From Phoronis australis (lineage: Eukaryota; Animalia; Phoronida), in NCBI GenBank assembly GCA_002633005.1, contig NMRA01000225.1:591115-655114 (forward strand): a DNA stretch of 64,000 bases, in the 5' to 3' direction. The position numbers were made by a program. Below are positions 42,001 to 45,000 of the stretch, in pieces (the stretch's first letter is position 1; every line of letters begins with the position of its first letter).

Positions 42001-45000
42001 TTTAAAAATTCTTGGAGGTGGCTGAAGGAATAATCAATCACTTGGACTGGTTTTGTTTCATGAACTGGGACACATGGCAAGGCTGCTGCCGATGTGTCAC
42101 GCAGTAAGAAGCTGAGGCCCACACTCTGACCGCCTGCTGCCATCTTTAAAGAATTTTCCAAAAATGTGTTCTGGATGTTGACAAGAGCTTGAATGGCTTT
42201 GAACACAGATGAACCTTCATTGAAAGCAACACATTCCTGGACGCTCGATTCCTGATGAAGCATGGGAAGGCACGGAAACAGATGGTTATTTCGTTCCTCC
42301 GCAAGCTGGCGCAGTTCGCTCCAAGAATCAGTGAATTTAGTCAACATTTTCTTCAATTTCGCCCGTTCCTTTTCCTTGCTATGACTATTTACGAATTGCA
42401 GAATTGTATCGTTGGAATGCTCTCTTGTAAGTGTTCGATTTTGACAGCTTACGACGAAGCCCTGCCAATTTACAATCGGTAACAAAAACTTTAAAAGTTG
42501 GAGATCGTCCACAGCCGATATCATGAGCTCGAGAAACGGGTTCTCGCTGCGAATCCCATTCAATTTGACTGCACCACACAAACTTTCAACAGTCTTCAAA
42601 GGGGAAAATCTGAAGAGCGGTGACAGCCAGTCATCTTCTAGTTCTTCTAACTGCCACTCGNACAGATGAACCTTCATTGAAAGCAACACATTCCTGGACG
42701 CTCGATTCCTGATGAAGCATGGGAAGGCACGGAAACAGATGATTATTTCGTTCCTCCGCAAGCTGGCGCAGTTCGCTCCAAGAATCAGTGAATTTAGTCA
42801 ACATTTTCTTCAATTTCGCCCGTTCCTTTTCCTTGCTATGACTATTTACGAATTGCAGAATTGTATCGTTGGAATGCTCTCTTGTAAGTGTTCGATTTTG
42901 ACAGCTTACGACGAAGCCCTGCCAATTTACAATCGGTAACAAAAACTTTAAAAGTTGGAGATCGTCCACAGCCGATATCATGAGCTCGAGAAACGGGTTC
43001 TCGCTGCGAATCCCATTCAATTTGACTGCACCACACAAACTTTCAACAGTCTTCAAAGGGGAAAATCTGAAGAGCGGTGACAGCCAGTCATCTTCTAGTT
43101 CTTCTAACTGCCACTCGAACGATTGCTTAGGTGTGCAAATTGTTTGGCGCATGGTGTCATTTATAATGTCATGGCGTCGCTTCACCATTTCACTCACTTC
43201 GCAAGTGAAAATTGCTTCCCATTCTGCCCGTTCCTCGGGTTTTTCAAACGAACATGTGGCCTTGGTCAGAAAGTTTTGCAGCCGGTTCAAGAGAGCGTGC
43301 ATAAAACAACACAAGCGGTGGGATGGTAAAGCAAACATGGTTTCCAAAATATTCCAGAACATCCCGAGTTCCTCTTCGACATAAGCTAACACATCGTCGT
43401 GACTCGTTTCTTTCTGTTCATCTAAACTGCACACGTCCGTGAGATCGTGGCGCGCCAAACCATGCCCACACAGAATTGCTCCGTTCATCAATATTCTGAA
43501 AACAACAAACGATGCAGCTGACATTCCTCGTGGATAACCTGCAGCTGTAGCGTAGCGCCAAAGTTCCAACGTTTGCGTACTCGCCACTGCCTTCCGTTCA
43601 TTGGATTCAATTTCATCACACTCCGGCAAACATTGCAAGTCACCTTTGCATATTGGGCAATGAGGCGTTGCAGCTGCAATTTTGTGCATGCATGTGCATT
43701 GGAAAGTAGCTATATCACATGAAGTGTCTTTGCTAACTTGTTCTTGTGTTGACGGTATGTAAAGGTATTTCAGCCTCGCAGGCTCAAAGAGTGCTTTGGC
43801 AAACAAAGATGTTTTGTCGCTGAATGACGCGATCATACAAAGCAAATGGATCATGACGGAAGAGATGTGAACATCACGGACTGGAACCCCTGGATACAAA
43901 TTAAACATTGGAACCTCAAATTTTCTTTCTTGATACAAATGTGGCAAGGTGTTCTTGACGACGTCGGGAAATTTCTCCAAATGCTCAGTGATTAATATTC
44001 CCGACTCTTTCTCAGTGGTGTTTAACTCGCGACGTCCAGATACAAGATATAAATCATCAACAACAACAGACATTAATGCGAATGTCTTCTCCTCGGATTT
44101 GATAGCCTCATTGGTGAAATCTGTTATTGCTTTCTTGTCGCCATTTAGAAGTGCACGAAGGGCCGCGCGTGCATTGTCATATTCATTTATCATGGGCATC
44201 ACTCTGAAACCAATTGGGTTGGTTAGTTCATCTTCCGTCCATGGACCACCTCGAAGACCAGGTATGTTGCGAGAACACTGCTTCACAGCAATGACAGTCT
44301 GTTGCATACCCATGCTGCTGTGCATGTGTTTCAAAAGGAAAAGTTTGACGTCTCCTTTTCTTAAATGCGTGCTAGCACCTTCTGATGACAGCTCAAGTAT
44401 TGATGACAGTTGCTGGAACGAGTAGTTTGTATCAGATGGGTGAGAAGATTCAGAATCCCGTATAAGCACACTGGCACGCCTCAGATAAAATTTCAGAAAG
44501 GATGTAGCGACAATAAGCCTCAGGCACATTGAGTTTTCAGTCTGGAATATACTGAAAACTTGCTTGACCAGGTCGTCGATTAGGTCATTTTGAGTAAAAC
44601 ATTCTTCAACAATGTCACAAGTAAGCACAGCTAGTGATGGGTTATTGGCGGTCACACATCGTACTATTGTTTCTTCAAGTTTGTGCAAATTCGGATAACT
44701 CTCTAAAGGCCCACCATTGAGAATGTCGGCAAGGAGAGCTGAGTTATTGAGAAGTTCCTCCCTCCACACTCTATCAACTAGTGTGCCAAAGTAGCGCAAT
44801 TCCTTGTCAATCACTTCCCCTTGAGCTATTCTTTCCAAGAATGTTCCTAGTGCAGCGCATACCCCTTCACCTTGATAGCAGTCGAAGCATCTACCCAAGT
44901 AAAGGCATATAAATTTTTGCATGTCGTCTTGGGGAACTTTCTTCGTATTCACCAAATCCTCTGACAAATTAATGATGTAGTCGAACATCGACCTGGACTG

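Follow-up and report, generated by a model that had tools for sequence, protein, structure and literature searches.

One of the closest described systems is vertebrate RNF213, or mysterin (PDB 6TAX, 7OIK, 8S24, 9JWG). By the account given in PMC12075652, the ubiquitin acceptor of the mouse protein is C4462 and the base is H4483; deletion of the RZ finger or mutation of C4462 ends both autoubiquitination and activity on lipid A, and autoubiquitination is retained in a Cys-to-Ser mutant. PMC11549300 reports that human RNF213 must bind and hydrolyse ATP to form coats on any of three pathogens, and that RZ activity is required for coats on bacteria only. RZ-dead human RNF213 still coats T. gondii vacuoles and fails on bacteria, according to the same source. 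The ubiquitin-binding helix of the RZ has been placed in the linker before the finger (bioRxiv 2025.10.14.682297). ZNFX1 is described as likewise having an RZ-type zinc site, but it is a helicase rather than an AAA motor, and it keeps C1860/H1881 together with a second, RING-like E2-binding domain.

We compared these systems with an RNF213-like gene in a 64,000-nucleotide stretch of the phoronid Phoronis australis (contig NMRA01000225.1; hereafter, the window). The Phoronis protein has in common with vertebrate RNF213 the domain order, the AAA core and the AAA3/AAA4 Walker motifs and, as predicted by structural models, the folds of the E3 shell/core and of the C-terminal domain (CTD). In contrast to vertebrate RNF213, it has no RING, a putative four-cysteine (C4) finger instead of C-H-C-C, and no equivalent of either the nucleophile (human C4516, mouse C4462, in the GxCG loop) or the general-base histidine (human H4537, in GGxxH). 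Its E3 module is too diverged for a single-sequence PDB match, and everything from the AAA core to the CTD is encoded on one exon.

Gene structure, assembly and transcription

The gene lies on the minus strand (Table 1); residue numbers are those of P0001, a 3571-residue frame at 53346-42631. As assembled, the reading frame is broken at 42661. The segments 42205-42660 and 42662-43118 are one base apart, and a homologue aligns to both flanks of the break, with overlap. Letters 1-2979 of a 5222-nt DNA contig (flat depth 39.4) map to 39683-42660, and letters 2524-5222 to 42662-45360. Since this contig carries the duplicated segment only once, the frame break is an assembly artefact. Taking out 457 nt mends the frame and yields, by arithmetic and with the 5' end of the gene unmapped, 4583 codons. 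The 5' end counts as unmapped because, when exons outside 41100-53400 were sought by tblastn with long relatives, 0 of 379 hits fell there. Downstream of the giant exon, 15 RNA reads break off at 41183, and their unaligned ends match 38647-38676 and 37121-37150; the tail encoded by the last exon was translated by eye. The N-terminal ~130 residues could form a CBM20-like domain: the top Atlas match (0.95, a lead only) carries CBM_20 in 24% of its members, and for this N-terminal CBM20 there was no Pfam match and no PDB sequence match.

Table 1. Coordinates of the RNF213-like gene and its features in the window
Feature	Position	Strand	Basis or remark
Exon of 659 codons for the N-terminal region and the first part of the stalk	53488..55466	-	ORF and splice sites read from sequence; RNA depth ~0-2
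161-nt GT-AG intron, inferred to join both frames in phase	53327..53487	-	Read from sequence; no RNA joint listed at low depth
One giant exon encoding the stalk, the dynein-like AAA core, E3 back/shell/core, the RZ stub and the CTD	41184..53326	-	
AAA3 Walker A (GETGCGKT) to Walker B (LDEIN)	49291..49479	-	
AAA4 Walker A (GKPGCSKS), Walker B (LDEIG), KMNR motif	48157..48525	-	
FLNRFEK motif	47335..47355	-	
Acidic insert in E3 shell (residues 2619-2691), predicted disordered, without RING-like Cys/His	45274..45492	-	pLDDT <50 at model residues 220-292
Putative RZ-derived four-cysteine stub C3217-x-C3219-x10-C3230-x2-C3233, without GxCG and GGxxH	43648..43698	-	
False duplication of 456 nt plus 1-N gap, frame-breaking assembly artefact	42205..42661	.	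Second copy 42662-43118
CTD region, approximate boundaries; predicted counterpart of the RNF213 E2-docking domain	41184..41850	-	Model match and conserved columns
Last coding exon: basic 28-residue tail, then stop	38590..38676	-	RNA reads; second copy ends at 37150 across another gap

The sequence of the finger motif is backed by the DNA contig over 42662-45360, from a run that may be the source sample of the assembly; the two differences among those listed (45225 and 45238) both lie outside the motif. In stranded RNA from another study (three runs, chosen by species label), the bin holding the motif had low depths of 5.1, 2.1 and 1.3, and at these depths no splice joint was listed in it. Reads covered 29/30 and 30/30 bins of the giant exon in two runs and 10/30 in the third. 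Thus the gene is transcribed, at a low level in the runs examined. Some RNA reads, among the rows listed, show 4-7 closely spaced differences within the AAA core (48364-48379 and 49051-49153), pointing to a close paralogue or divergent allele that is also transcribed.

We considered whether the gene might be a pseudogene in decay, or whether faulty assembly or splicing might conceal a full RZ or a RING in the true transcript. The broken frame, the unmapped 5' end and a finger classed as degenerate in 5 of 51 relatives speak for this. Against it, the break is a false duplication, the region is a single RNA-covered exon with no joint listed, the last exon adds just the 28-residue tail, and the stub is conserved across phyla. 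We regard this explanation as largely refuted and give it a minimal probability.

Other features of the window were recorded alongside the gene. On the plus strand at 9792-10977, neighbouring frames encode a Cys-x2-Cys piece together with ubiquitin-like (PF00240, E 2e-6) and TerD (PF02342, E 2.4e-5) domains; these frames are probably the exons of a single animal gene of the ubiquitin-like/TerD type. A TFIIF beta subunit gene, with an exon at 34298-34741 (plus strand; PF02270, E 2.4e-8), is convergent with the RNF213-like gene. Near-identical duplications surround N gaps at 36075-37304 / 37600-38829, where the last exon of the RNF213-like gene is doubled, and at 30925-31216 / 32075-32369; both are probably assembly artefacts of the same kind as the one at 42661. 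Repeat arrays occupy the start of the window (~430-nt units, 1-4540) and its end (680/1000-nt units, 61610-64000), and a high-copy, transcribed dispersed repeat lies upstream of the gene (55766-56690).

The motor, the E3 module and the finger

With the AAA core as query, phmmer returned nine RNF213 sequences at E 2.5e-129 to 4.8e-128, midasin being next at 1.6e-22; both structural models described below match RNF213 only, and the initial annotation of the protein as RNF213-like held. The Walker motifs begin at residues 1290, 1348, 1608 and 1682. A motif search found those of AAA3 and AAA4 intact, as had been proposed, and the corresponding patterns are present in 135-139 of 140 long proteins. 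The KMNR motif of AAA4 is presumably an arginine finger, and we take FLNRFEK to be that of AAA5.

A single-sequence PDB search with the C-terminal 1280 residues gave no matches. A profile of 32 relatives (A2) matched mouse RNF213 4176-5085 in the PDB at E 1.3e-61 and placed the CxC and CxxC of the finger on mouse C4451 and C4471/C4474; this profile included members with an intact RZ and matched mouse, not human, chains. With a second profile of 27 sequences (A3) there was no RNF213 match, and we suspect HMMER filters behind both this miss and the lack of human matches with A2. Weak FADD and IAP-RING matches of A3 (E 0.065-0.55) were dismissed as chance or generic cysteine spacing. Since A2 contained intact-RZ members and A3 missed RNF213, a structural check was chosen. 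An AlphaFold2 model of residues 2400-3561 (pLDDT 78.7) gave nine Foldseek hits at E at or below 0.001, all RNF213, and VIA-align aligned 861 residues of it over human 3701-4874 (Z 24.4, rmsd 8.7; next row, Z 8.0). Modelled separately, the last 492 residues of the exon (41184-42659) also gave nine hits at this threshold, all RNF213, over ~490 columns. The distance from finger to C-terminus is ~714 residues in the Phoronis protein and 702 in human RNF213. The profile alignment to mouse stops at 5085, and the E2-docking residues of the mouse CTD are F5093, W5097, Y5106 and E5108. Judged by profile and models together, the stub occupies the RZ-finger position, as first proposed, and the predicted E3 shell/core and CTD retain the RNF213 fold.

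The finger, FQCTCMHKIAAATPHCPICKGDLQCLPEC, comprises residues 3215-3243 and falls within the interval that the initial annotation had marked. Only 8 columns of a 60-sequence alignment are conserved at a level of at least 90%; since all four stub cysteines are among them, the motif is more than a chance pattern. Among 51 non-redundant relatives with a stub or degenerate finger, the cysteine is retained at C3217 in 47, at C3219 in 46, at C3230 in 49 and at C3233 in 47, and a histidine occurs at the position of H3221 in 7. Because of the 46 against 7, the second ligand is most likely C3219 rather than H3221, and the putative zinc ligands, aligned to the mouse site, form a C-x-C...C-x2-C set. The proposal that four zinc ligands persist is borne out for the four positions but needs correction for the second residue; likewise, the 8-residue spacer first described was counted from the histidine and measures 10 residues from C3219. 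The median spacer is 14 residues in stub relatives and 17 residues in all 7 RZ-like sequences aligned. Neither an xCG in the spacer nor a GG past the last cysteine occurs in any of the 51 stub relatives. Stubs with C-x3-H replacing C-x-C were observed in P0012, P0015, P0049, P0111 and P0123, so the identity of the second ligand is not fixed in this clade. In the AlphaFold2 model the stub consists of short strands of modest pLDDT (59-71); no helix is predicted ahead of it (model residues 796-814), but pLDDT is <50 at 804-813.

We sought GxCG, [ILV]GGxxH and a RING pattern in three translated frames (P0001-P0003) and found none; RING, RZ and IGGxxH patterns gave no match when all six frames of the window were scanned, and Pfam at E up to 1 returned AAA-type families only, neither ZnF_RZ-type nor RING. 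The E3 shell is predicted to be all-helical. Because the AAA core to the CTD is one exon, no RING or RZ lies in an overlooked exon at the usual place; the span corresponding to this exon includes the human RING ligand H4014, as that residue is given in PMC11549300. These results agree with the absences first noted and remove the reservation that an unrecognised exon in this region might supply a RING or a full RZ. The CxxC at 2820-2823 was considered as a RING remnant and rejected, as it lies in a predicted helix. We are highly confident both in the absence of the catalytic loop and in the clade-wide extent of its loss.

Three cysteines of the predicted shell helices, C2704, C2750 and C2820 (window 44887-45237, minus strand), are Cys in 41/51, 40/51 and 38/51 relatives, and a nearby column is His in 31/51 and Gln in the Phoronis protein; these cysteines may be buried, may form a metal site or may include a candidate nucleophile. 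C3239 and C3243 were ruled out as a conserved substitute nucleophile, since they are Cys in only 1/51 and 2/51 relatives. The suggestion that an alternative cysteine takes over catalysis therefore has little support near the finger, and the shell cysteines remain its candidates. It belongs to the main rival of the reading as a ligase-dead protein developed below: the CTD would dock E2~Ub, with ubiquitin passed directly to substrate or through another cysteine (C3219, if H3221 binds zinc; C2704, C2750 or C2820). The predicted CTD fold with its conserved columns, the frequencies of the shell cysteines and the switchable second ligand are consistent with such a route, as is the partial activity described for ZNFX1 without its RZ cysteine. 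However, that residual activity is reported to run through the RING-like domain, which has no counterpart here, and in RNF213 no activity is left without the RZ cysteine, according to PMC12075652. Moreover, the shell cysteines lie in predicted helices, C3239 and C3243 are unconserved, and a CTD tryptophan conserved in the family is missing from the Phoronis protein. We consider E3 activity by another route rather unlikely.

Relatives of the Phoronis protein

A search with the C-terminal 900 residues gave 69 representatives at 50% identity, with 46 stub, 5 degenerate and 5 intact fingers and 1 GG-only finger (Gigaspora, with Ser in place of the Cys); 8 further sequences were incomplete, although an intact RZ is visible in one of them, P0070, and 4 lacked the region. 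A search with the ATPase core only, blind to the finger, returned 1841 sequences, of which the best 120 were examined, a set rich in near-redundant unnamed sequences. Eleven of these lacked the region and 3 were incomplete; among the 106 scorable, 99 had a stub (98 by classifier and P0176 by inspection), 6 a degenerate finger, 1 a fungal partial RZ and none an intact RZ. The named stub carriers are cnidarians (Stylophora, Montipora, Desmophyllum, Dendronephthya, Xenia, Paramuricea, Actinostola), molluscs (Haliotis, Sinanodonta, Potamilus, Mercenaria, Mya, Ostrea), the brachiopod Lingula, the nemertean Lineus, the echinoderms Patiria, Asterias and Amphiura, and the lancelet Branchiostoma; named members cover six phyla. 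No RING pattern was present in the relatives scanned, and no RING family in the best 120 of 1841. PF20173 was passed by all 8 RZ-like proteins scanned, the named ones being fungi, and by none of 7 stub proteins scanned alongside; P0051 and P0062 passed with GG but without the general-base histidine.

A quick, incompletely searched AAA-core tree was built from 50 rows, obtained by thinning 146 candidates at 72% identity and adding 2 fungal rows. In it, 4 fungal rows separated from the 46 others with SH-aLRT 100, and the named molluscs and named deuterostomes were also grouped. Canonical animal RNF213 is absent from this tree because a search for it with the fungal RZ segment retrieved none; in that composition, the tree fits one old paralogue. 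Taken across the sequences compared, the stub is a trait of a large, old clade and not a one-off of the Phoronis gene.

The fungal RZ-type relatives (Jimgerdemannia, Scutellospora, Dentiscutata, Gigaspora), with unnamed JGI records, were found with the Phoronis C-terminal region and have core and CTD columns conserved in common with it. They likewise lack a RING pattern and have the CxC...CxxC frame. Unlike the stub, they pass PF20173, their spacer is 17 residues long and contains xCG (with Ser for Cys in Gigaspora P0063), and their last cysteine is followed by GG. Their AAA-core identity is ~42%, against 44-58% inside the stub clade. The RING-less, catalytic CxC-type RZ of fungi is likely the ancestral state; since fungal relatives with a catalytically intact RZ also have no RING, RING-lessness is probably ancestral rather than a loss. 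As a lead of low recognition, an Atlas ranking placed RING-less RZ clusters (0.90-0.92) above RING+RZ clusters (0.80-0.82). Among the fungi, Gigaspora rosea P0063 has a full-length RZ (residues 693-720) with serine at the nucleophile position (GESG). It may be a natural serine variant, by analogy with the mouse Cys-to-Ser mutant that keeps autoubiquitination in PMC12075652. P0078 and P0079 (Entrophospora, Diversispora) have 2 or 3 AAA3-AAA4 copies per chain.

Several species have multiple stub copies. This, together with a scaffold left whole while the chemistry alone is lost, would suit a regulator or decoy that joins an active RNF213 paralogue in a common assembly and dampens or adjusts its activity, or that soaks up pathogen inhibitors of RNF213; Atlas clusters with RING and RZ do exist, Mollusca being their commonest taxon (score 0.82, a lead only). 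Conservation of the ATPase motifs over six phyla suggests, against this, that the protein does work of its own, and we judge such a role distinctly unlikely.

Possible functions and significance

We put at about an even chance the whole mechanism in which this RING-less invertebrate RNF213 paralogue, without the ubiquitin-accepting cysteine, is a ligase-dead, ATP-driven sensor or scaffold. The four-cysteine stub would still bind zinc, and the AAA motor, to judge by its motifs, would hydrolyse ATP and drive assembly of the protein into coats on the surface of pathogens or vacuoles, like those that RZ-dead mutants of human RNF213 form on Toxoplasma vacuoles. The ubiquitin signal, if any, would be supplied by another ligase, which might be a canonical RING+RZ paralogue. 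We favour this reading because, in the published accounts cited above, RNF213 is inactive without its RZ or C4462 and coats on T. gondii vacuoles need no RZ activity. The absence of xCG and GG from all 51 relatives, and the constraint on the four cysteines and on the Walker motifs over six phyla, speak for it as well. Also counted in its favour is the linker at the site of the ubiquitin-binding helix, which is not predicted to be helical in the Phoronis model (low pLDDT). Against it, the coating precedent would extend to vacuoles only, as mammalian RZ-dead RNF213 fails on bacteria; the CTD, which in RNF213 docks E2, appears retained in the model; and each of the three shell cysteines recurs in 38-41 of 51 relatives.

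Alternatively, the protein might be a non-immune ATP motor for membrane, lipid-droplet or protein remodelling, with the E3 body as a mere scaffold. Its low-level transcription in the RNA runs examined is compatible with this, and RNF213 is reported to be active also at lipid droplets (PMC6400562). The CBM20-like N-terminal lead, the fast divergence outside the motor (20-27% identity in most matches) and the lineage-specific copies would, however, better fit an immune gene. We hold a non-immune motor to be very unlikely.

For a sensor or scaffold without ligase activity, the interest of the clade is that a lineage which keeps motor and scaffold, with the catalytic loop dropped, over six phyla makes the job of the RNF213 motor beyond ligase activation testable, and the fungal CxC-type fingers offer a matched active control. 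The annotation of these genes is also affected, stub members being labelled as RNF213-like E3 ligases; some carry the database label 'E3 ubiquitin-protein ligase RNF213-like'. In the literature searched, no shortened, RZ-dead invertebrate RNF213 appeared in titles or the opening of abstracts; supplementary or original RZ alignments may already show shortened fingers. At least one bivalve genome paper ties an RNF213 expansion to LPS ubiquitylation (PMC9993606); if the broader reading given next is true, many invertebrate 'RNF213 expansions' taken as LPS ligases would be pseudoligases. More tentatively, the clade may represent a second RNF213 lineage in invertebrates that pre-dates the cnidarian-bilaterian split, in which a motor without ubiquitin chemistry of its own would serve as a ligase-independent immune coat or scaffold, possibly the ancestral job of the family.
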